A program made the translations under genes and the position numbers. Source: Escherichia phage vB_EcoP_ACG-C91. Taken from it: a stretch of DNA of 43,731 nt. The DNA lies in the sequence record NC_019403.1, one strand, 5' to 3'. The notes under the pieces were generated by a model that was given only the letters and a program-made list of their open reading frames with translations, did no database searches and was not told the origin of the DNA. Positions 3,807 through 43,731 of the stretch are shown here, piece after piece. Numbering within the stretch: the stretch's first letter is position 1; each line of letters starts with the position of its first letter.

Positions 3807-6434
3807 ATGCAAGACCTACACGCTATTCAACTTCAACTTGAAGAAGAAATGTTTAACGGCGGTATCCGTCGCTTTGAAGCGGACCAACAACGCCAGATTG
3901 CATCCGGTAATGAATCAGACACGGCATGGAATCGCCGCTTATTGTCCGAGTTAATCGCGCCAATGGCTGAAGGTATTCAGGCATACAAGGAAGAGTATGA
4001 AGGTAAAAGAGGCCGTGCACCGCGTGCATTAGCTTTCATTAACTGCGTAGAAAACGAAGTGGCAGCATATATCACGATGAAAATCGTTATGGATATGCTG
4101 AATACAGACGTTACCTTACAAGCAATCGCTATGAATGTAGCGGACCGCATCGAAGACCAAGTACGTTTTAGCAAGCTGGAAGGTCACGCAGCTAAGTACT
4201 TTGAGAAAGTGAAGAAGTCGCTTAAGGCTAGCAAGACTAAATCTTATCGTCATGCGCACAACGTAGCGGTAGTAGCTGAGAAATCTGTTGCTGACCGTGA
4301 CGCGGATTTCTCCCGTTGGGAGGCATGGCCTAAAGATACCTTGCTACAAATCGGTATGACCTTGCTAGAAATACTGGAAAATAGTGTATTCTTCAATGGT
4401 CAGCCTGTCTTTCTTCGCACCTTGCGCACTAATGGTGGCAAGCATGGCGTTTACTACTTACAGACCAGTGAACACGTAGGGGAATGGATTACAGCATTTA
4501 AAGAACATGTAGCGCAACTTAGCCCGGCTTATGCACCTTGCGTTATACCTCCGCGTCCGTGGGTTTCTCCTTTTAATGGTGGATTTCATACTGAGAAAGT
4601 AGCAAGCCGTATTCGTCTGGTTAAAGGCAGCCGTGAACACGTCCGTAAGCTGACCAAAAAGCAAATGCCAGCGGTTTACAAGGCTGTTAACGCTTTGCAG
4701 GCGACTAAATGGCAGGTTAACAAGGAAGTATTACAGGTAGTTGAAGACGTTATACGCCTTGATTTAGGTTATGGTGTGCCTTCATTTAAGCCGCTAATTG
4801 ACCGTGAGAACAAGCCAGCTAATCCCGTTCCTCTTGAGTTTCAGCACCTGCGAGGCCGTGAACTGAAAGAAATGCTCACGCCGGAACAATGGCAAGCCTT
4901 CATTAACTGGAAAGGTGAATGCACCAAGCTGTACACCGCAGAAACTAAGCGCGGCAGCAAGTCGGCTGCTACGGTCCGCATGGTTGGTCAGGCCCGTAAA
5001 TACAGCCAGTTTGACGCTATTTATTTTGTGTATGCACTGGATAGCCGCAGCCGTGTCTACGCGCAATCTAGCACGCTCTCACCGCAATCAAACGACTTAG
5101 GCAAAGCATTACTCCGCTTTACCGAAGGGCAGCGCCTTGATAGCACTGAGGCGCTTAAATGGTTTTTGGTGAACGGGGCGAATAACTGGGGTTGGGATAA
5201 GAAGACTTTCGACGTGCGCACCGCTAACGTGCTGGATGGCGAATTTCAAGACATGTGCCGCGACATTGCAGCCGATCCTCTAACCTTCACTCAATGGGTA
5301 AATGCTGATTCCCCTTACGGATTCCTTGCATGGTGCTTTGAATATGCTCGTTATTTAGATGCGCTGGATGAAGGTACACAAGACCAATTCATGACGCACC
5401 TACCCGTCCATCAAGACGGTAGTTGCTCTGGTATCCAGCACTATAGCGCGATGTTACGCGATGAAGTAGGTGCGAAAGCGGTAAACCTTAAGCCCTCTGA
5501 CTCCCCTCAAGATATTTATGGTGCCGTTGCGCAGGTAGTAATTCAGAAGAACTATGCATACATGAATGCAGAGGATGCGGAAACCTTCACTTCTGGCAGC
5601 GTGACTTTAACAGGTGCGGAACTGCGTAGCATGGCTAGTGCGTGGGATATGATAGGAATCACTCGCGGCCTAACCAAAAAGCCCGTAATGACACTGCCTT
5701 ACGGCAGCACACGTCTAACCTGCCGTGAGTCAGTGATTGATTATATCGTTGATTTAGAAGAAAAAGAGGCCCAACGGGCTATTGCGGAAGGGCGTACCGC
5801 CAATCCTGTACACCCTTTTGATAATGACCGTAAGGATGGCCTGACACCTAGCGCAGCTTATAACTATATGACAGCTTTAATCTGGCCTTCTATTTCGGAA
5901 GTGGTTAAAGCTCCTATAGTGGCAATGAAAATGATTCGTCAACTTGCCCGTTTCGCAGCTAAAAGGAATGAAGGCTTAGAGTATCCCTTGCCCACAGGCT
6001 TCATTCTGCAACAAAAGATTATGGCTACTGATATGCTCCGCGTATCCACTTGCCTGATGGGAGAAATCAAGATGAGTCTACAGATTGAAACGGACGTAGT
6101 GGATGAAACGGCCATGATGGGCGCTGCTGCTCCTAACTTCGTGCACGGTCATGATGCTAGCCACCTGATTCTAACGGTGTGCGACCTAGTGGATAAAGGT
6201 ATTACCTCCATTGCAGTTATCCATGATTCTTTCGGTACTCATGCAGGCCGCACCGCAGACCTACGTGACAGTCTAAGGGCAGAAATGGTGAAGATGTATC
6301 AAGGCCGTAACGCTCTGCAAAGCCTGTTAGATGAGCATGAAGAGCGCTGGTTAGTAGACACCGGAATCCAAGTGCCAGAGCAAGGAGAGTTTGACCTTAA
6401 CGAAATCTTAGTATCTGACTATTGCTTCGCATAA
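3807..6434 (+). CDS. Single-subunit DNA-dependent RNA polymerase (SP6-type)
   Basis: 875 aa; N-terminus [32 protein letters not shown] and long internal stretches match SP6 RNAP as I recall it; catalytic IHDSFGT motif; C-terminal ...FA. Confidence 0.97.
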
Positions 6435-6442
6435 TATTAATA

Positions 6443-6475
6443 GGCCATCCCTTCGGGAGTGGCCTTTTTCTTTTA
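6443..6475 (+). terminator. Rho-independent terminator after RNAP gene
   Basis: GGCCATCCC-TTCG-GGAGTGGCC hairpin followed by TTTTTCTTTT. Confidence 0.6.
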
Positions 6476-6509
6476 CCTACTACCTGTAACATTTCATTAA
6501 CATAAAAGT

Positions 6510-6525
6510 GTCTCACATGTGAGAC
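6510..6525. repeat. Conserved palindrome GTCTCACATGTGAGAC (copy 1)
   Basis: Perfect 16-bp palindrome immediately upstream of phage promoter. Confidence 0.7.
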
Positions 6526-6527
6526 TT

Positions 6528-6548
6528 ATTTACCGGACACTATAGGAT
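6528..6548 (+). promoter_or_regulatory. Phage-RNAP promoter (ATTTACCGGACACTATAGGAT)
   Basis: Matches the window consensus ATTTAC(T/C)GGACACTATAGAAG, SP6-like CACTATAG core. Confidence 0.7.
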
Positions 6549-6690
6549 AGCCGTCGGAGACGGGAAAGAAAGGGAAGATAAAGGATATAAAGGAAGTAAT
6601 AGGTATTAAAGGTTATATAGGTTATCTAGGAATACCTATTACCTTCTTCCTTCCTCTTATTGCCACTTAGAGGAAGGGCAGATCTAAGTT

Positions 6691-6706
6691 GTCTCACATG
6701 TGAGAC
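6691..6706. repeat. Conserved palindrome GTCTCACATGTGAGAC (copy 2)
   Basis: Perfect palindrome again followed by a promoter-like sequence. Confidence 0.7.
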
Positions 6707-6711
6707 TTCGT

Positions 6712-6732
6712 ATTTACCGGACAGTATAGATA
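6712..6732 (+). promoter_or_regulatory. Phage-promoter variant (ATTTACCGGACAGTATAGATA)
   Basis: Two mismatches from consensus core; upstream of gp1.1-like gene and primase/helicase. Confidence 0.5.
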
Positions 6733-6759
6733 AGATTAACTCACTTTGGAGATTTAACC

Positions 6760-6888
6760 ATGCGTAACTTTGAGAAGATGACCCGTAAAGCTAACCGTTT
6801 TGACATGGAAGAAGGGCAGAAGAAAGGCAAGAAGCTGAATAAACCTGTCCGTGATCGTGCATCTAAACGCGCTGCGTGGGAGTTCTAA
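6760..6888 (+). CDS. Small basic protein, T7 gp1.1-like (42 aa)
   Basis: MRNFEKMTRKANRFDMEEGQKKGKKLNKPVRDRASKRAAWEF resembles T7 gene 1.1 protein (MRNFEKMTKRSN...) as I recall it; GGAG RBS. Confidence 0.6.
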   Translation: MRNFEKMTRKANRFDMEEGQKKGKKLNKPVRDRASKRAAWEF

Positions 6889-6891
6889 GTT

Positions 6892-8880
6892 ATGGCTATT
6901 ATTCAGAATGTACCGTGTCCTGCCTGTCAAAAGAATGGACATGATATTACTGGCAACCATCTTATGATATTTGAGGATGGCGCGGGTTACTGTAACCGTG
7001 GGCACTTCCATGATAATGGCAGGCCATACTACCATAAGCCCGAAGGTGGCATCGAGATAACCGAGTTGCCCATTACTGGCAATATCAAATATACACCTTC
7101 TCAATTCAAAGAGATGGAGACGGAAGGGAAGATAAGCGACCCTAAGTTGCGCGCCATCGCACTTGGTGGTATGCGTATGAAAGACCGTTGGGAGGTCATG
7201 AATGAGCAAGAAAGGGCAGACCAAGAAGCAGAGTGGAAACTTGATGTTGAATGGTTCCTCACGCTTAAGCGTAAGAACCTTGTGTCCCGTCACATTCGAG
7301 GTGACATCGCAGCAATGTACGATGTGCGCGTTGGACACGATGAAGAGGGAAGAGTCAACCGTCACTATTATCCACGATATGAAAAGGGTGTGCTTGTTGG
7401 AGCAAAATGCCGGACGTTGCCGAAGGATTTTAAGTTCGGACACCTAGGTAAACTCTTTGGTATGCAAGACCTTTTCGGTATGAACACTTTGTCTCACGTG
7501 TTAGACAAGGGGAGACGAAAGGATTGCTTGCTTATTGTAGGTGGTGAACTTGATGCACTAGCAGCGCAGCAGATGCTCCTTGATTCTGCCAAGGGTACTA
7601 AGTGGGAAGGCCAGCCATACCATGTATGGTCTGTCAACAAAGGCGAGTCTTGCCTTGAAGAGATAGTGCAGAACCGTGAGCATATCGCCCAATTCAAGAA
7701 GATTATATGGGGTTTTGATGGGGATGAGGTAGGGCAGAAGCAGAACCAACAAGCTGCTCGCCTGTTTCCTGGCAAATCCTACATCCTCGAATATCCCTCT
7801 GGTTGCAAAGATGCTAACAAGGCATTGATGGCTGGCAAGGCTAAAGAGTTTGTTGATGCTTGGTTTAATGCCAAGTCATCTGATGAAGTCTTTGGTAGCC
7901 AGATTAAATCTATCGCATCTCAAAGGGGTAAGCTCAAGGCTGCACGTCCAGAGCAAGGGTTATCATGGCCTTGGCCTAAGCTGAACAAGGTAACGCTAGG
8001 TATTCGTAAGAACCAGCTTATCATTGTAGGTGCAGGTTCTGGTGTAGGTAAGACTGAGTTCCTTCGCGAAGTGGTTAAGCACCTCATTGAAGAACACGGT
8101 GAATCTGTAGGCATCATTTCTACAGAAGACCCAATGGTCAAGGTGTCCCGTGCTTTTATCGGCAAGTGGATTGATAAGCGTATTGAGTTACCGCCAACCA
8201 ACGACCCGAAAGAAGACGGATACCGTGAGGTGTTCGACTACACCGAGGAAGAAGCTAACGCTGCCATTGATTATGTGGCTGATACAGGAAAGCTATTTGT
8301 GGCTGACCTAGAAGGCGACTATTCTATGGAGAAGGTAGAGCAAACTTGCCTAGAGTTTGAGGCTATGGGCATTTCTAATATCATCATTGATAACTTAACG
8401 GGGATTAAATTAGATGAGCGTGCTTTTGGTGGGAAGGTTGGTGCACTTGATGAATGCGTCAAACGAATTGGTACTATCAAAGACCGACATGCGGTTACGA
8501 TTTTCCTTGTCTCTCACCTTACACGTCCTCCGGCAAACCGTACCCAACACGAAGAAGGTGGCGAAGTTATCCTTTCTGACTTCCGAGGCTCAGGCGCTAT
8601 CGGATTCTGGGCATCTTACGCCTTGGGGATTGAGCGTAATACAAGAGCTGAAACGCTTGATGAAAGGACTACCACGTACATCTCGTGTGTCAAAGACCGC
8701 GATCAAGGTATCTACACTGGAACCAAGGTCATGCTTAAGGGTGACATTCAAACCGGACGTTTAATGGAACCACAAGCTAGAACAAGGTCATTTGATACAG
8801 GTGAAACAAGGCAGCAAGAGGTGCCTGATTTACCGGACACTATAGAAGAGACAACCTTTGACGATGAACAGGAGTTTTAA
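6892..8880 (+). CDS. DNA primase/helicase (T7 gp4-like bifunctional)
   Basis: 662 aa; N-terminal Cys-rich zinc-binding region (CPACQ...CNRGHFH); Walker A GAGSGVGKTEF; acidic C-terminal tail ...DDEQEF. Confidence 0.95.
   Translation: MAIIQNVPCPACQKNGHDITGNHLMIFEDGAGYCNRGHFHDNGRPYYHKPEGGIEITELPITGNIKYTPSQFKEMETEGKISDPKLRAIALGGMRMKDRWEVMNEQERADQEAEWKLDVEWFLTLKRKNLVSRHIRGDIAAMYDVRVGHDEEGRVNRHYYPRYEKGVLVGAKCRTLPKDFKFGHLGKLFGMQDLFGMNTLSHVLDKGRRKDCLLIVGGELDALAAQQMLLDSAKGTKWEGQPYHVWSVNKGESCLEEIVQNREHIAQFKKIIWGFDGDEVGQKQNQQAARLFPGKSYILEYPSGCKDANKALMAGKAKEFVDAWFNAKSSDEVFGSQIKSIASQRGKLKAARPEQGLSWPWPKLNKVTLGIRKNQLIIVGAGSGVGKTEFLREVVKHLIEEHGESVGIISTEDPMVKVSRAFIGKWIDKRIELPPTNDPKEDGYREVFDYTEEEANAAIDYVADTGKLFVADLEGDYSMEKVEQTCLEFEAMGISNIIIDNLTGIKLDERAFGGKVGALDECVKRIGTIKDRHAVTIFLVSHLTRPPANRTQHEEGGEVILSDFRGSGAIGFWASYALGIERNTRAETLDERTTTYISCVKDRDQGIYTGTKVMLKGDIQTGRLMEPQARTRSFDTGETRQQEVPDLPDTIEETTFDDEQEF
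8827..8847 (+). promoter_or_regulatory. Phage-RNAP promoter embedded in the 3' end of the primase/helicase gene
   Basis: ATTTACCGGACACTATAGAAG exact consensus; encodes the DLPDTIEE residues of the helicase tail. Confidence 0.6.
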
Positions 8881-34600: not shown

Positions 34601-34796
34601 AGGCTTGATAGACCAAATTCCCCTAGTTGGTGTAGGTCAAGATGCTTACCGTCTGGCAGACTCTATAACTAAGTACGCTGAAGGTGACACAGAGGGCGTA
34701 GATGTGGCACGCAGAGTGTTGCGCTTAGTGCCTCTTACAAATGTAATAGGGGTCCAAAACGCATTGCGTTATGGCTTAGATGAACTGGAGGATTGA
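31611..34796 (+). CDS. Internal virion (ejection/core) protein, large
   Basis: 1061 aa; Gly/Ala-rich hydrophobic segments near N-terminus; TAAGGAGG RBS; position as T7 gp16. Confidence 0.8.
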   Translation: MEQDIQTNWASYVQSTPELFAIEAAPVSAPTIRQRNELQEQVLEAKADADVLGAVGAAFQNEWLAFGGERWYDRATADFAPQPDFEIQPERREALRFKYGTDMMQAITEGVRSEDELNFRIQNADEDLERNRRIAQAGWVGPVATVGAAVLDPVGWVASIPTGGAVKVGLVGRAVRGAIAAGVSNAAIESVLVQGDMTRDLDDIMVALGSGMAMGSVIGAVARGRATKLSEQGDDRAASIVRSADAGDRYVRAVADDSIGAMRVKGAEVLTEGAFDISSKGEDLLKTLQREGNAIDMTPRRWAGTLSALGTVVHSSQDASIRGLGARLFESPQGLGMQKASASLMQNTNLNRLKSADMNRFNDGFDLWLKENNINPVAGHTNSHYVQQYNEKVWEAVRIGMDESTPKSIRMAAEGKQAMYREALALRQRSGEAGFEKVKADDKYMPDIFDSMKARRQFDMHDKEDIIELFSRAYQNGARKIPKEVAEEIARAQVNRVADATLTGRMSFEKAMSGQTKAEYEAIMRKAGFSDEEIEKMVEALDNKETRDNISNRAKMSLGLDVTQEYKGIRMRDFMNTNVEELTDNYMKEAAGGAALARQGFSTYQAALNAIDLVERNARNTAKDSKASLALDEEVRQMREGLRLIMGKSIDADPQARSAKMLRRGRDITGVLRLGQMGFAQLGELANFMGEFGVAATTIALGKQFRFTSKALRSGDGFFRDKNLAEVERMVGYIGEDNWLTTKGARPDEFGDVTTVRGMMVHFDQSMNSIRRAQTNLSLFRMAQGSLERMTNRQIALSFIDHLEGKKVIPQKKLEELGLTQEFMTSLQNHYDANSKGSGLLGFDTMPYAMGETLANAIRRKSGLIIQRNFIGDEGIWMNKALGKTFAQLKSFSLVSGEKQFGRGIRHDKIGLAKKTAFGFALGSMVYAAKTYVNSIGRDDQDEYLEEKLSPKGLAFGALGMMSTTAVFSLGGDFLGGLGVLPSELVQSRYEAGFQTKGLIDQIPLVGVGQDAYRLADSITKYAEGDTEGVDVARRVLRLVPLTNVIGVQNALRYGLDELED

Positions 34797-35758
34797 TGAG
34801 TTATACTTTCACAGAGCATATAGCCAATGGTACGCAGGTTACTTATCCTTTCAGCTTTGCTGGCAGGGATAAGGGTTATCTCCGTGCCTCAGATGTAATA
34901 GTGGAGTCTTTCCAAGCTGGGACTTGGATAGAAGTAACATCTGGTTGGCAACTGTCTGGTACACACCAGATTACCTTTGATGTAGCACCAGTTAGGGGTT
35001 TGAAGTTCCGCATTCGAAGAGAGGTGCAAAAGGAGTACCCATATGCAGAGTTTGACCGTGGTGTTGCTCTGGATATGAAATCACTGAATGGCTCCTTTAT
35101 TCACATCCTAGAAATCACCCAAGAAATTCTAGATGGGTTTTATCCAGAAGGTTACTTCGTTAAGCAGGATGTGTCATGGGGTGGCAATAAGATAACCAAC
35201 CTAGGCAATGGTACTGAGCAGGGAGATGCGGTCAATAAAGGGCAGCTTGACGCTGTGGATGCTAAGCACACAGAGTGGAACTCACGTCAGGATTTAGAGA
35301 TCGCAGGTATTAAGAAGGGCATGACCTCTGGGGTAGCACACAGAACAATCCCTTGGTATATGTTGGCCTCTGGTGGAGAACAAATCATACGCCCACCTTA
35401 CACCTTTGATGATGCAATAGTGTTTATTAATGGTGTATTCCAGCATGAATTAGCTGGTGCAGTGTCGGTGGGGCATGACGTTATAGCCTTGTCTGAACCA
35501 CTTCAAGCAGGGGATGAGTTGTATGTACTTATTGGTAGCCGCATCACACCACCTACTAGTGAAGATACTATCCTGTTATCCCAGCAGGTAAGTGAGGGAA
35601 CACAGGCAATTGACATAGTAACTGCCTTTAAGCGTATTGATGTTTACCTCGACGGCCTGTATCAACCTAATGACTCTTATAACATTCAGGATACTACTAT
35701 TACTTTTAGTGAACCATTACCTGAATGCACACTGAGCGCCAAACTACAGTTAGTATAA
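34796..35758 (+). CDS. Tail fiber-like adaptor protein (T7 gp17 N-terminal-domain homolog)
   Basis: 320 aa; N-terminal region resembles the tail-attachment domain of T7 gp17; too short to be a full fiber. Confidence 0.8.
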   Translation: MSYTFTEHIANGTQVTYPFSFAGRDKGYLRASDVIVESFQAGTWIEVTSGWQLSGTHQITFDVAPVRGLKFRIRREVQKEYPYAEFDRGVALDMKSLNGSFIHILEITQEILDGFYPEGYFVKQDVSWGGNKITNLGNGTEQGDAVNKGQLDAVDAKHTEWNSRQDLEIAGIKKGMTSGVAHRTIPWYMLASGGEQIIRPPYTFDDAIVFINGVFQHELAGAVSVGHDVIALSEPLQAGDELYVLIGSRITPPTSEDTILLSQQVSEGTQAIDIVTAFKRIDVYLDGLYQPNDSYNIQDTTITFSEPLPECTLSAKLQLV

Positions 35759-36384: not shown

Positions 36385-36684
36385 ATGAGCGTACACAATA
36401 AACATGCAGCTACAGAGGATGAAGTTGGCATTCTGCATGGTGCTATTACCAAAATCTTCAATAAGAAAGCACAGGCAATACTGGACACTATAGAGGGGGA
36501 CCCCGATGCAGCATTGCATTTAGTATCTGGTAAAGATATTGGTGCTATGTGTAAGTGGGTTCTAGATAACGGCATCACTGCTACACCTGCTGCACAGCAG
36601 GAAGAGTCCAAGTTATCTAAGCGCCTCAAGGCTATCCGAGAGGCATCCAGTGGTAAGAGCATCCAATTCACTAAGGAGGATTGA
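36385..36684 (+). CDS. Terminase small subunit (putative)
   Basis: 99 aa directly upstream of and overlapping large terminase; GGGAGG RBS. Confidence 0.6.
   Translation: MSVHNKHAATEDEVGILHGAITKIFNKKAQAILDTIEGDPDAALHLVSGKDIGAMCKWVLDNGITATPAAQQEESKLSKRLKAIREASSGKSIQFTKED
36470..36492 (+). promoter_or_regulatory. Promoter-like sequence inside small-terminase ORF (ACTGGACACTATAGAGGG)
   Basis: Matches the downstream 15 nt of consensus; upstream part diverged. Confidence 0.35.
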
Positions 36685-38582
36685 TGGCTAAGGCAAGAGA
36701 ATCACAAGCAGAGGCTCTTGCCAGATGGGAGATGTTACAGGAGTTACAGCAGACCTTTCCTTACACAGCAGAAGGTTTGCTTCTCTTTGCAGATACAGTT
36801 ATCCATAACTTGATTGCAGGCAACCCTCATCTGATTCGTATGCAGGCCGATATATTAAAGTTCTTATTCTATGGACATAAGTATCGCCTCATCGAAGCGC
36901 CTCGTGGTATTGCTAAGACAACACTATCAGCAATCTATACAGTATTCCGTATCATCCATGAGCCACATAAACGTATCATGGTTGTATCCCAAAACGCCAA
37001 GCGAGCAGAGGAAATTGCAGGTTGGGTAGTGAAAATCTTCCGTGGCCTAGACTTCCTTGAGTTTATGCTACCGGACATATACGCTGGCGACCGTGCATCC
37101 GTCAAAGCATTTGAGATTCACTACACGTTACGCGGCAGCGATAAGTCACCTTCTGTATCCTGTTACTCTATCGAAGCAGGTATGCAGGGTGCTCGTGCTG
37201 ATATTATTCTAGCAGATGACGTAGAATCGATGCAGAATGCTCGTACAGCAGCAGGTCGTGCCTTGCTTGAGGAATTAACTAAGGAATTTGAATCTATCAA
37301 CCAGTTTGGTGATATTATCTACCTTGGGACACCACAGAATGTAAACTCTATCTACAATAACTTGCCTGCCCGTGGATACTCTGTTCGTATCTGGACGGCA
37401 CGTTATCCTTCAGTAGAACAGGAGCAATGTTATGGTGACTTCCTTGCACCAATGATTGTTCAAGATATGAAGGATAACCCAGCACTTCGCTCTGGCTACG
37501 GTTTGGATGGTAACAGTGGTGCACCTTGCGCACCTGAGATGTATGATGACGAAGTGTTGATTGAGAAGGAAATTTCTCAAGGTGCTGCTAAGTTCCAGCT
37601 TCAGTTTATGCTGAACACTCGCATGATGGATGCTGACAGATACCCACTTCGTCTAAACAATCTAATCTTTACTTCGTTCGGTACAGAGGAAGTCCCTGTG
37701 ATGCCTACGTGGAGTAATGATTCTATTAATATCATTGGCGATGCCCCTAAGTATGGTAACAAGCCTACAGACTTTATGTATAGACCTGTAGCCCGTCCTT
37801 ACGAATGGGGTGCTGTTACCCGTAAGATTATGTATATTGACCCTGCGGGTGGTGGTAAGAACGGGGATGAAACGGGTGTGGCTATCGTCTTCCTGCACGG
37901 CACATTCATTTATGTGTATCAGTGCTTTGGTGTGCCGGGAGGATACCGCGAATCGTCCCTGAATCGCATTGTGCAGGCCGCAAAGCAGGCGGGTGTTAAA
38001 GAGGTATTCATAGAGAAAAACTTCGGCCATGGCGCGTTTGAGGCCGTAATTAAGCCGTACTTTGAGCGAGAGTGGCCTGTGACTCTGGAAGAGGATTACG
38101 CCACCGGACAGAAAGAGTTGCGTATCATTGAAACACTAGAGCCACTAATGGCGGCCCACAGGCTCATCTTCAACTCAGAGATGGTCAAGTCTGATTTTGA
38201 GTCGGTACAGCACTATCCGCTTGAACTACGCATGTCATACAGCCTTTTCAATCAAATGTCGAACATCACGATTGAGAAGAACAGCCTACGACACGATGAC
38301 CGCTTAGACGCTCTGTATGGCGCTATACGGCAATTAACTTCTCAGATAGACTATGACGAGGTTACACGGATTAATCGCCTCAGAGCGCAGGAGATGCGCG
38401 ATTACATCCATGCTATGAACACACCTCACCTCCGTAGGGCAATGCTCTATGGAGATTATGGCACTGAGCGAAGAGTAACCAACACTTCCGTGGCTATGCA
38501 GCAAAGAGTATACGGTCAGAATTACAGGAGTAAATCGGCAAGCAGAAATACACTTTCTGCAAGGATTTCAAGGACTTATTAA
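36684..38582 (+). CDS. Terminase large subunit (DNA maturase, T7 gp19-like)
   Basis: 632 aa; Walker A-like PRGIAKTT; ATG 36684 with AAGGAGG RBS. Confidence 0.9.
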   Translation: MAKARESQAEALARWEMLQELQQTFPYTAEGLLLFADTVIHNLIAGNPHLIRMQADILKFLFYGHKYRLIEAPRGIAKTTLSAIYTVFRIIHEPHKRIMVVSQNAKRAEEIAGWVVKIFRGLDFLEFMLPDIYAGDRASVKAFEIHYTLRGSDKSPSVSCYSIEAGMQGARADIILADDVESMQNARTAAGRALLEELTKEFESINQFGDIIYLGTPQNVNSIYNNLPARGYSVRIWTARYPSVEQEQCYGDFLAPMIVQDMKDNPALRSGYGLDGNSGAPCAPEMYDDEVLIEKEISQGAAKFQLQFMLNTRMMDADRYPLRLNNLIFTSFGTEEVPVMPTWSNDSINIIGDAPKYGNKPTDFMYRPVARPYEWGAVTRKIMYIDPAGGGKNGDETGVAIVFLHGTFIYVYQCFGVPGGYRESSLNRIVQAAKQAGVKEVFIEKNFGHGAFEAVIKPYFEREWPVTLEEDYATGQKELRIIETLEPLMAAHRLIFNSEMVKSDFESVQHYPLELRMSYSLFNQMSNITIEKNSLRHDDRLDALYGAIRQLTSQIDYDEVTRINRLRAQEMRDYIHAMNTPHLRRAMLYGDYGTERRVTNTSVAMQQRVYGQNYRSKSASRNTLSARISRTY

Positions 38583-39809: not shown

Positions 39810-39942
39810 GTCTAAGAAGGTGGTAGGTGCACTGGTTGCACTGGTGATTGCCCTTGTTTCTGTAGGACTTGGCGTAGATTTTGGTGAAGGTACGGAAGGT
39901 TCCGTCACTGACGTGGTGTGCCAAGTAATCACCTGTGAATAA
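39793..39942 (+). CDS. Small membrane protein (49 aa), possible lysis accessory
   Basis: ATG with AAGGGGAG RBS; VVGALVALVIALVSVGLGV predicted TM. Confidence 0.45.
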   Translation: MKKLFKSKKVVGALVALVIALVSVGLGVDFGEGTEGSVTDVVCQVITCE

Positions 39943-40156
39943 GGTGCTTGAGGTGGTGGCAGGCCTTATTGGCCTGCTGCTTGCCGCTAAGAAGAAAAAG
40001 GAAGACAAGGAGGCACAAAGTGAAGCGAATCGTGCTAGCGACAATCCTGCTGATTGGTTCGCTGATCACTTCAGGGTGTCAGACGGCGTTACCAGAGAGT
40101 CAAAAGGTAAAGCCGCTGAAGCAGACGCTGACGGCAGTTTACGAGGTAGACGATAA
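39935..40156 (+). CDS. Putative i-spanin (Rz-like)
   Basis: N-terminal TM (VLEVVAGLIGLLLAA) followed by charged domain; GTG start; contains the o-spanin ORF in another frame. Confidence 0.5.
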   Translation: MNKVLEVVAGLIGLLLAAKKKKEDKEAQSEANRASDNPADWFADHFRVSDGVTRESKGKAAEADADGSLRGRR

Positions 40157-40229
40157 GGTCTGCTTTAGTAAGCCTGACGCTACAAAACTTGGTTTGTACA
40201 TTCTTTCGCTAGAACGCGGATATAATTAA
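40020..40229 (+). CDS. Putative o-spanin (Rz1-like lipoprotein), embedded/overlapping in i-spanin gene
   Basis: GTG 40020 7 nt after AAGGAGG; signal peptide with lipobox-like ...LITSGC followed by Pro-containing mature region. Confidence 0.55.
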   Translation: MKRIVLATILLIGSLITSGCQTALPESQKVKPLKQTLTAVYEVDDKVCFSKPDATKLGLYILSLERGYN

Positions 40230-40258
40230 TACATAGCTTTATGTATCAGTGTCTTACG

Positions 40259-40279
40259 ATTTACTGGACACTATAGAAG
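40259..40279 (+). promoter_or_regulatory. Phage-RNAP promoter upstream of tailspike genes
   Basis: ATTTACTGGACACTATAGAAG exact consensus. Confidence 0.75.
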
Positions 40280-40361
40280 AGATAAGATAGTGCCGTTCGT
40301 TTGAGCGGCCTATTACTAGCCAATCTTCATAGAGAGGGTTGGAATAGTAATAGGAGATTAT

Positions 40362-40697
40362 ATGGGTAAGTTAACTAAACCAAAGACAACTGGCTTGCTG
40401 CATGGAAACACTCTAGTATCTACCTTGTTAGATAATTTGGTATCTAAGAGGCGTGTTACGTTTGAGAGAGTAGTACCAAGTGAAGATACTAAAATTGAGA
40501 TAGAAGTACCAGCAACAGGAGATTTAGATTCTTCATGGGTATCAATTGTATCATTAAGTACACCTGCACTTTGTACAGCTTGGATCACTAAACTGTCAGA
40601 TACTACTTTAGAGATTCATGTCTTTCATACAGCACAAGTCGAAATAGACATAGAGGTAGATGTTTACTATCTGGGTAAACATGTTATCAGTGCGTAA
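40362..40697 (+). CDS. 111-aa protein upstream of endosialidase (tailspike-locus ORF)
   Basis: ORF track; position and length match the small ORF I recall preceding the endosialidase gene in coliphage K1E (where K1-5 carries a K5 lyase). Confidence 0.65.
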   Translation: MGKLTKPKTTGLLHGNTLVSTLLDNLVSKRRVTFERVVPSEDTKIEIEVPATGDLDSSWVSIVSLSTPALCTAWITKLSDTTLEIHVFHTAQVEIDIEVDVYYLGKHVISA

Positions 40698-40763
40698 GCA
40701 CTGCTTTCACGCAAATTTTCTTAAAGGTTATCATGGTGGTAGCCTTTCAGAAGAGGAGGTAAT

Positions 40764-43199
40764 ATGCTTCAGAGACTTGGGGCTTCTTTGGTAAAATTTA
40801 AAAGTAAACTGCTGAACTCTGCATATCGCAACCTTGATGATAAGCTAACGGAGTTAGTATCATTAAAAGATTTCGGTGCTAAAGGGGACGGAGTTACTAA
40901 CGATAACGCAGCAGTGGTTGCAGCTATGGCTACTGGTAAGCGTATCGATGGGGCAGGCGCTACTTATAAGGTAGATGCACTACCTGACATGGAACGCTTC
41001 TACAATACGAGATTTGTATGGGAGAGGGTTGCAGGTCAACCTCTTTACTATGTAAGTCAGGGTTTTATTAATGGTGAGTTGTATAAGATTACAGACAACC
41101 CGTACTACAACGCTTGGCCTCAAGATAAAGCCTTTGTATACGAGAACGTAATTTACGCACCTTATATGGGTAGTGACCGTCACGGTGTTAGCCGTCTCCA
41201 TGTGTCATGGGTTAAGTCTGGTGACGATGGTCAAACATGGTCTACTCCAGAGTGGCTTACTGACTTGCACCCAGAGTATCCTACAGTGAACTATCATTGT
41301 ATGAGTATGGGTGTCTGCCGTAACCGCCTATTTGCTATGATTGAAACACGTACCTTAGCGAAGAACGCACTTACAAATTGTGCGCTATGGGATCGCCCTA
41401 TGTCTCGCAGTTTGCATCTCACTGGTGGTATCACGAAGGCAGCAAATCAGCGATATGCAACAATCCATGTACCTGATCACGGGCTGTTTGTGGGTGACTT
41501 TGTTAACTTCTCTAACTCTGCGGTAACAGGTGTATCTGGTGATATGAAGGTTGCAACGGTAATAGATAGGGACAACTTCACGGTTCTTACACCTAACCAG
41601 CAGGCCTCAGATTTGAATAACGCTGGAAAGAACTGGCATATGGGTACTTCATTCCATAAATCGCCATGGCGTAAGACAGATCTTGGCTTGATTCCTCGTG
41701 TTACTGAAGTACATAGCTTTGCTGCTATTGATAACAACGGCTTTGTTATGGGTTATCACCAAGGCGGTGCAGCTCCACGCGAAGTTGGACTATTCTACTT
41801 CCCTAACGCTTTCGATAATCCAGCGAACTATGTTCGTCGTCAGATACCTTCAGAGTATGAGCCAGATGCCGCAGAACCCTGCATCAAGTATTACGATGGT
41901 GTATTGTACCTCATCACCCGTGGTACTAGAAGCGATAGATTGGGAAGCTCTTTGCATCGCAGTAGAGATATAGGTCAGACTTGGGAGTCACTGAGATTTC
42001 CACATAATGTGCATCATACCACTTTACCATTTGCTAAAGTAGGCGATGAGCTTATTATGTTTGGTTCAGAGCGTGCAGAAAATGAATGGGAAGCAGGTGC
42101 ACCAGATGATCGTTACAAGGCATCTTATCCTCGTACCTTCTATGCACGATTGAATGTAAACAAGTGGAGTGCAGATGACATTGAGTGGGTGAACATCACA
42201 GACCAAATCTATCAGGGTGATATTGTAAACTCTAGTGTAGGTGTAGGTTCTGTTGTAGTTAAAGACAGCTATATCTACTACATCTTTGGTGGCGAAAACC
42301 ATTTCAACCCAATGACTTATGGTGACAACAAAGGTAAAGACCCATTTACGGGACATGGACACCCTACTGATATATACTGCTATAAGATGCAGATTGCAAA
42401 CGACACTCGTGTATCTCGTAAGTTCACATATGGTGCAACACCGGGTCAGGCTATACCTACCTTCATGGGCACTGATGGTGTACGAGATATTCCTGCACCT
42501 TTGTACTTCTCAAACGACATCACTACCGAGGATGCTAAAGTTGGACACTTGACTCTTAGAGCAACTACCAGTGCCAACATTAGGTCTGAAGTGCAGATGG
42601 AAGGTGAGTACGGTTTTATTGCTAAGGCTGTTCCAAAGACCAACCCATCAGGTCAACGTTTACTTCTTTGTGGTGGAGAAGGGACTTCATCTTCCACAGG
42701 TGCACAGATAACGTTGCATGGCGCTAATTCAAGTAAACCTAAGCGTATCACCTATAACGGGAATGAACACCTATTCCAAGGTGCACCAATCATGCCTGCT
42801 GTAGATAACCAGTTTGCTGCTGGCGGACCTCGTAACCGATTCACTACTATCTACTTAGGTAGTGACCCTGTTACCACTTCCGATGCTGACCATAAGTATG
42901 GTATCTCTGGTATTGACACCAAGGTATTAAAGGCTTGGAGTCTTGTTGGCTTCAAACAGTACGGTTTGAATAGTGAAGCAGAACGAAACCTTGATAGTGT
43001 ACACTTTGGTGTTTTGGCTCAGGACATCGTAGCTGCTTTTGAAGCTGAAGGTTTGGATGCCATCAAGTACGGGATTGTGTCCTTCGAAGAAGGTAGGTAT
43101 GGTGTAAGGTATAGTGAAGTCCTCATTCTAGAGGCTGCTTATACTCGCTATCGTCTAGATAAATTAGAGGAGATGTATGCCACTAATAAAGTCAGTTAA
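40764..43199 (+). CDS. Endosialidase (endo-N-acetylneuraminidase) tailspike with C-terminal intramolecular chaperone domain
   Basis: 811 aa; two Asp-boxes (SGDDGQTWS, SRDIGQTWES); C-terminal ...GISGIDTKVLKAWSLVGFKQYGLNSEAERNLDSVHFGVLAQDIVAAFEAEGLDAIKYGIVSFEE... typical of the auto-cleaving chaperone domain; AGGAGG RBS. Confidence 0.9.
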   Translation: MLQRLGASLVKFKSKLLNSAYRNLDDKLTELVSLKDFGAKGDGVTNDNAAVVAAMATGKRIDGAGATYKVDALPDMERFYNTRFVWERVAGQPLYYVSQGFINGELYKITDNPYYNAWPQDKAFVYENVIYAPYMGSDRHGVSRLHVSWVKSGDDGQTWSTPEWLTDLHPEYPTVNYHCMSMGVCRNRLFAMIETRTLAKNALTNCALWDRPMSRSLHLTGGITKAANQRYATIHVPDHGLFVGDFVNFSNSAVTGVSGDMKVATVIDRDNFTVLTPNQQASDLNNAGKNWHMGTSFHKSPWRKTDLGLIPRVTEVHSFAAIDNNGFVMGYHQGGAAPREVGLFYFPNAFDNPANYVRRQIPSEYEPDAAEPCIKYYDGVLYLITRGTRSDRLGSSLHRSRDIGQTWESLRFPHNVHHTTLPFAKVGDELIMFGSERAENEWEAGAPDDRYKASYPRTFYARLNVNKWSADDIEWVNITDQIYQGDIVNSSVGVGSVVVKDSYIYYIFGGENHFNPMTYGDNKGKDPFTGHGHPTDIYCYKMQIANDTRVSRKFTYGATPGQAIPTFMGTDGVRDIPAPLYFSNDITTEDAKVGHLTLRATTSANIRSEVQMEGEYGFIAKAVPKTNPSGQRLLLCGGEGTSSSTGAQITLHGANSSKPKRITYNGNEHLFQGAPIMPAVDNQFAAGGPRNRFTTIYLGSDPVTTSDADHKYGISGIDTKVLKAWSLVGFKQYGLNSEAERNLDSVHFGVLAQDIVAAFEAEGLDAIKYGIVSFEEGRYGVRYSEVLILEAAYTRYRLDKLEEMYATNKVS

Positions 43200-43326
43200 G
43201 CAAAGTATTGTACGACAGAACACAGAAGAACTCATTCAATCAGGACGTGACCCTAAGCAGGCTTATGCCATTGCCAAGGATGTACAACGTCGTGCCTTGA
43301 AGAAGCCTTCTGCATCTTCTGCGTAA
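43177..43326 (+). CDS. Small basic protein (49 aa) overlapping endosialidase 3' end
   Basis: ATG 43177 with GAGGAG RBS at 6 nt; below ORF-track cutoff. Confidence 0.35.
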   Translation: MPLIKSVKQSIVRQNTEELIQSGRDPKQAYAIAKDVQRRALKKPSASSA

Positions 43327-43329
43327 GCA

Positions 43330-43731
43330 GGTTAATATCTTAGTGTACACAAGGGCAGACCTATGATAGCTCACAGCACACCTATGAGTGCCGCTCTGGA
43401 GTCTATGACTTGTTCCCTGACTATCTAGGTTTGCTCTTAGTGTGTTTCAAAGGAGGTATGTATGCTGTATATAATGGTTGGTAGCTTATGGGTAATCATG
43501 GCTTTCTTCTTTCTAGCATGGTTGTTAGGTTGGAGGCCAAGCTGTTCATAGGGTGCACCTTAGTGTTGTACAAGGAGGGTGTAGGTATGCTGTCTTTGTT
43601 GTGTATACTTAGTGATATGCTAAGTCGTAAGAGGTACATTCTTAGTGAAGACCAAATAAGGGATGAGAGGATACGGAGGTCGCTCACAAAGTAACCAAAG
43701 TCAAAATTTTGATATAGGCGTGTGTCAGCTC
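43330..43731. repeat. Right terminal non-coding region with CTTAGTG-containing short repeats and duplicated RBS-like elements
   Basis: cttagtgtacacaaggg, ctcttagtgtg, caccttagtgttgtacaaggaggg, tacttagtgatatgc, cattcttagtgaag; mirrors left-end repeat content. Confidence 0.4.

Follow-up and report, generated by a model that had tools for sequence, protein, structure and literature searches.

The tailspike cassettes of phages K1E and K1-5 are the closest described counterparts of the locus analyzed here, which occupies positions 40362 to 43199 of Escherichia phage vB_EcoP_ACG-C91 (NC_019403.1) and consists of two open reading frames (ORFs) for proteins of 111 and 811 amino acids; the window referred to below is the whole stretch of DNA that was analyzed, 43,731 bp in length. 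In K1E (AM084415 / NC_007637), the genes for a spanin (gp45), a 111-residue protein (gp46) and the 811-residue endosialidase tailspike endoNE (gp47) follow one another, and the same layout is found in the K1E fragment X78310 of 1994, with its promoter, '12kDa ORF' and gp90 endosialidase. Phage K1-5 carries an 811-residue endosialidase as well and fills the first tailspike slot with a 632-residue K5 lyase. In the passages of PMC6872550 and PMC6966330 that deal with tail architecture, an adapter protein joins the tail and offers the docking sites for the tailspikes, and both tailspikes are reported to have been seen attached to the adapter by cryo-electron microscopy of K1E and K1-5 (Leiman et al. 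2007, as cited there); the docking peptides, MAKLTKP for the first-slot protein and MIQRLGSSLVK for the endosialidase, are given in the corresponding passage of PMC6872550 after Leiman et al. 2007. The endosialidase endoNF of phage K1F (gp17; PDB 1V0E, 3GVJ-L, 3GW6) represents a different solution, with its own T7 gp17-like anchor of about 245 residues and no need for an adapter. Compared with these systems, the ACG-C91 locus is, with a probability that we put at about 0.93, the receptor-binding cassette of a K1E-like Vectrevirus, in which a K1 endosialidase tailspike and a small first-slot stub would both be mounted on the adapter.

Much of this is not new. Exact-sequence look-up showed that the 811-residue protein is identical to AFH19879.1 ('endosialidase [Escherichia phage vB_EcoP_ACG-C91]'), the 111-residue protein to AFH19878.1 ('hypothetical protein ACG-C91_0052') and the 320-residue adapter to AFH19867.1 of the same phage, and the window, with its 43,731 bp and 45.3% GC, is the complete deposited ACG-C91 genome, described by Chibeu et al. 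2012 (PMC3347319) as 43,731 bp long with 45% GC. In that work, orf53 was named an endosialidase like those of K1-specific phages, and orf52/orf53 (GenBank JN986844; AFH19878.1, AFH19879.1) are the same locus without any difference. Because the exact proteins, the genome length and the GC content all match ACG-C91, the endosialidase was already present both in the literature and in GenBank, and the locus is a known, annotated gene of a published phage. The 111-residue ORF, the adapter and the docking peptides are not discussed in PMC3347319, and the sole increment of the present analysis is a plausible, still unproven, reinterpretation of the small upstream ORF, which would encode a conserved 'headless' tailspike.

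The two ORFs and the parts of the endosialidase are as follows.

40362-40697, plus strand: gp46-like protein of 111 amino acids, ATG start, with the peptide MGKLTKP and a predicted beta-sandwich at about residues 25-105; putative 'headless' first-slot tailspike
40764-43199, plus strand: endosialidase tailspike of 811 amino acids, homolog of gp47, ATG start, assigned by Pfam, PDB and K1E/K1-5 comparison
40764-40796, plus strand: N-terminal docking undecapeptide MLQRLGASLVK of the endosialidase, identical to the K1E/K1-5 peptide MIQRLGSSLVK at 9 of 11 positions
40878-41069, plus strand: N-terminal extension domain of the endosialidase, residues 39-102 (Pfam PF12218, E = 4.3e-33)
41070-42398, plus strand: six-bladed beta-propeller catalytic domain, residues 103-545 (Pfam PF12217, E = 2e-219, full profile length)
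41403-41651, plus strand: beta-barrel insertion domain, residues 214-296, a polysialic acid-binding module in endoNF (Pfam PF12195, E = 1.9e-46)
42399-42878, plus strand: stalk (tail-spike) domain, residues 546-705 (Pfam PF12219, E = 1.8e-81)
42879-43196, plus strand: C-terminal intramolecular chaperone domain, residues 706-811, with the Ser706/Lys711 dyad (PF13884; PDB 3gw6/3gud)

A preceding examination of the DNA alone, hereafter the sequence-only reading, had placed both ORFs at exactly these coordinates, had recognized an endosialidase with a C-terminal intramolecular chaperone domain, for which it proposed a comparison with K1E and K1-5, and had given lengths of 811 and 111 residues for K1E; these are indeed the lengths of gp47 and gp46, and the assignment of the enzyme holds throughout. 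The 811-residue protein is 92.0% identical to K1E gp47, 91.5% to K1-5 gp47 and 93.8% to its best GenBank relative, that of phage SHAK7163, in each case over all 811 residues with zero indels. All five endosialidase Pfam domains are present in order and above their respective cutoffs, including Peptidase_S74 (PF13884) at residues 706-763 (35.8 bits, cutoff 22), and a phmmer search against PDB sequences matched the endoNF crystal structures (1v0e, 3gvj-l) to residues 38-705 with E = 0 and the chaperone domain to 3gw6 (E = 5e-57) and 3gud (E = 1.2e-10). The match to the endoNF structures makes the structure prediction suggested in the sequence-only reading superfluous. Furthermore, the two sialidase Asp-boxes that had been reported are present, SGDDGQTW at residues 152-159 (41217-41240) and SRDIGQTW at residues 400-407 (41961-41984); the ends given before, about 41243 and 41990, overshoot by only 3-6 nucleotides. 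When all six frames of the window are translated, the underlying motif S.D.G.TW turns up at these two places and nowhere else; 200 shuffles contain it 0.005 times on average.

Alignment with K1F gp17 (L008) and K1E gp47 places H140, E371, R386 and R437 of the ACG-C91 protein on H350, E581, R596 and R647 of endoNF in identical local contexts. The stalk residues R632, S643 and Q648, which correspond to R837, S848 and Q853 of endoNF and reportedly take part in polysialic acid binding (Stummeyer et al. 2005), are conserved in the same alignment, and so is the autocleavage dyad S706/K711 (endoNF S911/K916) in the alignment with K1F gp17. The propeller, beta-barrel, stalk and chaperone domains are common to both enzymes with all key residues conserved. 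Identity to endoNF is 74% over 801 aligned columns, a figure that includes the gap-flanked N- and C-terminal regions, and the crystallized core aligns easily; the ACG-C91 stalk has a 5-residue insertion and its chaperone domain is shorter. Confident alignment begins near endoNF residue ~245, past the anchor, with only scattered short blocks upstream. Where endoNF has the T7-type anchor, the ACG-C91 protein has the undecapeptide instead, and a Pfam search of the 811-residue protein for the corresponding domain PF03906 gave no match. By all available sequence tests, the protein is an endosialidase of family GH58.

The ratio of nonsynonymous to synonymous substitution rates (dN/dS) of the endosialidase gene is 0.07. 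Compared with the nearest GenBank relatives, its synonymous divergence (dS) is 0.54-0.69, and yet the enzyme core is nearly unchanged at the protein level: the propeller core (residues 101-300 and 401-500) is 96-100% identical to that of K1E, whereas the differences from K1E gp47 are concentrated in residues 1-100 (76-88% amino acid identity) and in the stalk at residues 551-650. SHAK7163, another endosialidase phage, has nearly the same sequence as ACG-C91 in the divergent stalk segment (98-100% identity). A closer donor of residues 1-100 was sought among the K1E-like phages, all of which are 82% identical in this region with none nearer, and, because all are equally distant, there is no evidence in the collection of a recent mosaic donor. 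More generally, the tailspike locus (40200-43400) is more diverged than positions 1-25000, with 87-89% versus ~94% nucleotide identity to the nearest GenBank relatives; the best matches in the phage collection likewise reach ~94% genome-wide and 87-89% over the tailspike locus. In the comparison with K1E, the corresponding values are 87.6% for the locus and ~94% for the rest of the genome.

The 111-residue ORF stands in the same slot and is separated from the endosialidase gene by the same spacer as K1E gp46, to which its product is 81% identical at equal length. The profile of the K1E gp46 family, phrog_15083, covers residues 1-111 of 111 with E = 3.1e-69. Members of the family keep 111-112 codons without a single indel down to 50% identity and have 34 invariant positions, among them L4, T5, K6 and P7 of the docking heptapeptide, which reads MGKLTKP in ACG-C91 and agrees with MAKLTKP at 6 of 7 positions. 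With a dN/dS of 0.22-0.49, the ORF is under purifying selection, conserved and invariant in length. The sequence-only reading had assigned it to a K1E-type arrangement in which a second tailspike gene is absent or degenerate; the arrangement is borne out, but 'absent or degenerate' undersells a conserved ORF under purifying selection.

This ORF is also found apart from endosialidases. In four metagenomic Vectrevirus-like contigs, stubs that are 50-63% identical to that of ACG-C91 precede other second-slot tailspikes at an equal spacing: 458 amino acids in L006 (stub and tailspike at 6001-7778), 571 in L013 (4001-6119), 540 in L016 (4001-6026) and 464 in L017 (4001-5798). These tailspikes and the endosialidase have in essence nothing in common beyond the (M)xLQRLGxxLVK region at their N-termini, the exception being the L013 tailspike, which also matches the chaperone domain at the C-terminus of the endosialidase (27% identity over 142 residues). 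Among the cultured phages of the collection, the 111-residue ORF was found only with endosialidases, in 26 records.

With respect to its origin, a search of 1.84 billion representative proteins with the family profile yielded one meaningful match outside the family, P0005 (493 amino acids, E = 5.8e-7), whose gene fills the first tailspike slot on L011, a syntenic metagenomic contig of Vectrevirus-like type, and is followed by that of a second tailspike of 626 residues. Two collinear segments make up the match: residues 1-23 correspond to residues 1-23 of P0005, the docking peptide (57% identity), and residues 23-106 align with residues 405-490 (27% identity, pairwise E = 7e-8), that is, with a C-terminal beta-sandwich of ~85 residues that shares the same C-terminal end. 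Between these segments, P0005 has a pectate-lyase-like beta-helix of ~380 residues, of which the 111-residue protein contains no trace. For the C-terminal part, hhalign against the P0005 family returned a probability of 82-85%, MAFFT placed residues 20-111 on the extreme C-terminus of the family, and the addition of tailspike C-termini to the alignment raised the AlphaFold (AF2) predicted local distance difference test score (pLDDT) from 62 to 81, with ~95 over residues 30-100. A profile search with the C-terminal-domain alignment recovered more members of the 111-residue family and no intermediates; the tailspikes of the query itself were also missing from the output, and we do not interpret the absence. 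In a Foldseek search of BFVD, the 111-residue protein retrieved only itself (ACG-C91 K4FCB4, 100% identity) and non-specific matches. A further profile hit, P0006 (779 amino acids with cadherin/VCBS-like repeats; E = 9.5e-5 in 5 stretches), was judged to be a repeat or low-complexity artefact.

The most economical reading of these alignments is that the 111-residue ORF arose by internal deletion, with retention of the anchor peptide and the tailspike C-terminal domain and loss of the beta-helix of ~380 residues. In its fullest form, this would make the protein a selectively maintained 'headless tailspike', a docking peptide fused, after clean loss of the beta-helix, to the H-type-lectin-like beta-sandwich of a P0005/E212-type tailspike, and one half of a widespread Vectrevirus arrangement of a stub plus one exchangeable tailspike; it would be needed to cap or stabilize the first site of the adapter and might bind sugar. 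To this complete scenario we assign slightly less than an even chance. Another possibility, which we consider unlikely, is that the 111-residue protein is more than a passive plug and takes an active part in receptor binding, as a small trimeric knob of lectin-like type for a second carbohydrate.

The family of tailspike bodies to which P0005 belongs includes P0007-P0012 and the tail spike QVW53997.1 of Lederbergvirus E212 (L012, MZ043897, 1036-2877), which are ~46-48% identical to P0005 and are attached to four kinds of anchors: an SP6-type heptapeptide (P0005), a T7/K1F-type fibre N-terminus (P0012), Tail_spike_N PF18668 (P0008 and P0011) and a P22-like head-binding domain (E212). This family is a clear example of anchor swapping.

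Another explanation of the small ORF, and the older one in the literature, is that it is a non-functional truncation remnant of the K5 lyase gene (kflA), drifting to loss, with K1E derived from a K5 phage by gain of an endosialidase. In the relevant passage of PMC6966330, K1E gp46 is called small and likely truncated, with Clarke et al. 2000 cited for the truncation of kflA, and the sequence-only reading had proposed a comparison with the N-terminus of the K5 lyase tailspike. That comparison detects a similarity, with 48% identity to the K1-5 lyase over the first 27 residues (BLASTP, E = 1.8e-4), and two K1A-lineage records, discussed below, contain frameshifts in the ORF. Nevertheless, the resemblance to the K5 lyase stops at residue ~27, a profile search with filters off did not extend it, and residues 1-27 are the docking-peptide region common to all first-slot tailspikes; with the docking peptide alone in common, the truncated lyase was rejected as the source of the ORF. 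Moreover, a drifting ORF would lack the indel-free length, the 34 invariant positions, the dN/dS of 0.2-0.5 and the association with five unrelated second-slot tailspikes, so the remnant scenario is disfavored and appears quite improbable. Since a stub rather than a K5 lyase fills the first slot, in contrast to K1-5, no K5 specificity is predicted for ACG-C91.

Several observations weigh against our interpretation of the cassette and have to be set beside the evidence given so far. The C-terminal match of the stub to P0005, taken alone, amounts to 26 bits, with an estimated E near 0.5 across the library of 1.84 billion proteins, which is not significant; the reported E of 5.8e-7 is stronger because it includes the N-terminal peptide. 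In the K1A lineage, the records L009 (MG004687, mutPK1A2; 601-932) and L010 (EF507428, K1A; 297-630) have different 1-nucleotide indels in an A-run of the 111-residue ORF, and the mutPK1A2 record annotates its own deletion as a premature termination; cultured phages may therefore do without the protein. As an alternative to laboratory dispensability, one of the two indels is possibly a sequencing error.

The host range is the other point of tension. The K1 specificity of ACG-C91, although strongly supported, is deduced from homology and from the hosts of the nearest relatives; the published spot tests used isolates of untyped capsule. Phages with the same cassette were isolated on O18:K1:H7, K1 LU_100, K1 EH954, IHE3034 and APEC 45. 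The serogroups O1, O2 and O18ac:H7 are classical K1 serogroups, and strain CFT073 is O6:K2. Urinary isolates of O1, O2 and O18ac:H7 are lysed by ACG-C91 (PMC3347319), but its spot tests were also positive on CFT073 and on isolates of O25:H1, O75:H7, O134:H31, O135:H6 and O153:H18 (PMC3347319, Table 1). Either some of these additional hosts carry K1, or spot clearing makes the host range look too wide, or the restriction of the phage to K1 is not strict. A tailspike that acts, by binding or cleavage, on a target different from or additional to the K1 capsule, such as the alternating alpha-2,8/2,9 polysialic acid of K92 or another receptor, would agree with the spot-test hosts that are not classically K1 and with the divergence from K1E at residues 1-100 and in the stalk, but is very improbable given the nearly identical propeller core, the conservation of every mapped catalytic and polysialic acid-binding residue, the close match of the divergent stalk segment in an endosialidase phage and the common tendency of spot tests to overcall sensitivity when lysates of up to high titre are used.

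The elements around the two genes are those of a K1E-like cassette.

34796-35758, plus strand: adapter of 320 amino acids, homolog of K1E/K1-5/SP6 gp37, detected by tblastn and Pfam PF03906, with two predicted tailspike docking sites
40263-40279, plus strand: putative phage-RNA-polymerase promoter core ACTGGACACTATAGAAG of the tailspike operon, a perfect copy of a repeated 17-mer
40292-40353, plus strand: structured 5' leader with adjacent predicted hairpins at 40292-40309 and 40310-40353, followed by the ribosome-binding site AGGAG (40352-40356)
40698-40763, plus strand: spacer of 66 nucleotides between the two tailspike-slot genes, with the ribosome-binding site GAGGAGG (40753-40759)
43177-43326, plus strand: ORF of 49 amino acids, homolog of K1-5 gp48, overlapping the last 23 nucleotides of the endosialidase gene

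The adapter is 84% identical to K1E gp37 over 320 residues (tblastn), and its residues 3-152 match Phage_T7_tail (PF03906); it has a T7 gp17-like N-terminal domain, through which it would join the tail, without the receptor-binding body. The promoter 17-mer ACNGGACACTATAGAAG is present in 10 copies in the window, all on the plus strand and compared with 0.13 expected, at positions 6532, 8832, 13249, 14018, 15164, 18329, 23404, 36480, 38585 and 40263; the last of these, at 40263-40279, aligns with the annotated promoter of the '12kDa ORF' in X78310 and is invariant in K1E, mutPK1A2 and L006. A scan of positions 39900-43731 for sigma-70 promoters and intrinsic terminators gave counts no higher than those in shuffled sequences. 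The RNA of the 5' leader folds with -33.3 kcal/mol (z = -6.1; 0 of 200 shuffles equally stable), and that of the spacer with z = -3.3. The leader (40276-40361) is nearly invariant among four phages, and the spacer hardly changes between K1E, mutPK1A2 and the metagenomic contig L006, where the flanking ORFs are down to 59% identical in amino acids or are unrelated. Near-invariant leader and spacer sequences beside diverged coding regions fit the modular manner in which phages of this group are known to exchange their tailspikes; the two elements may be the boundaries of an exchangeable cassette or, alternatively, elements of RNA processing or stability.

Collectively, gene order, ORF lengths and spacing, promoter position, spacer, domains and docking peptides agree with K1E, and the protein identities amount to 92% for gp47, 81% for gp46 and 84% for gp37. 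The adapter system and the spacer are also shared with K1-5, the first slot of which has only the ~27 N-terminal residues in common with the stub. The 49-residue ORF shares 92% identity with K1-5 gp48 and has a hit to phrog_2423 (E = 6.6e-23); it lacks annotation in the K1E RefSeq record. Elsewhere in the window, the large terminase gene (36681-38582) is one intact ORF for 633 amino acids, whereas in K1E, L006 and L016 it is in two parts, interrupted by a homing-endonuclease gene for ~177 amino acids (gp40A / 40.5 / 40B). SP6-like phages have terminal direct repeats. A search of the whole window found none, and the repeat of ACG-C91 was probably collapsed or omitted during assembly.

If the homologies are taken at face value, the cassette would work as follows. 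Both genes would be transcribed by the phage RNA polymerase from the promoter at 40263-40279. By analogy with endoNF and endoNE, the 811-residue endo-N-acetylneuraminidase would trimerize with the aid of its C-terminal chaperone domain, which would then cut itself off at Ser706 with the help of Lys711. The mature spike of ~705 residues would dock through MLQRLGASLVK on the adapter gp37, itself seated on the tail, and the propeller, with H140, E371, R386 and R437 and aided by the polysialic acid-binding sites of the beta-barrel and stalk, would cut alpha-2,8-linked polysialic acid and so let the virion tunnel through the capsule of E. coli K1. The 111-residue protein, with its MGKLTKP peptide, most likely fills the first tailspike site of the adapter as a non-enzymatic stub, apparently an anchor peptide joined straight to the C-terminal beta-sandwich of a tailspike from which the beta-helix body has been deleted.

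The endosialidase itself adds nothing new to a K1E-type arrangement known from work of the 1990s-2000s onward. What it offers in practice is the sequence-based prediction of host range on K1-capsulated E. coli, which cause neonatal meningitis as well as urinary and bloodstream infections. The small first-slot ORF, in turn, is a conserved, probably structural component that travels with at least five unrelated tailspikes, which is of modest value for engineering and for the annotation of receptor-binding proteins. Given its conservation and the near-invariant borders of the cassette, designs that swap tailspikes in K1E/SP6-type phages should keep the stub or replace it deliberately.

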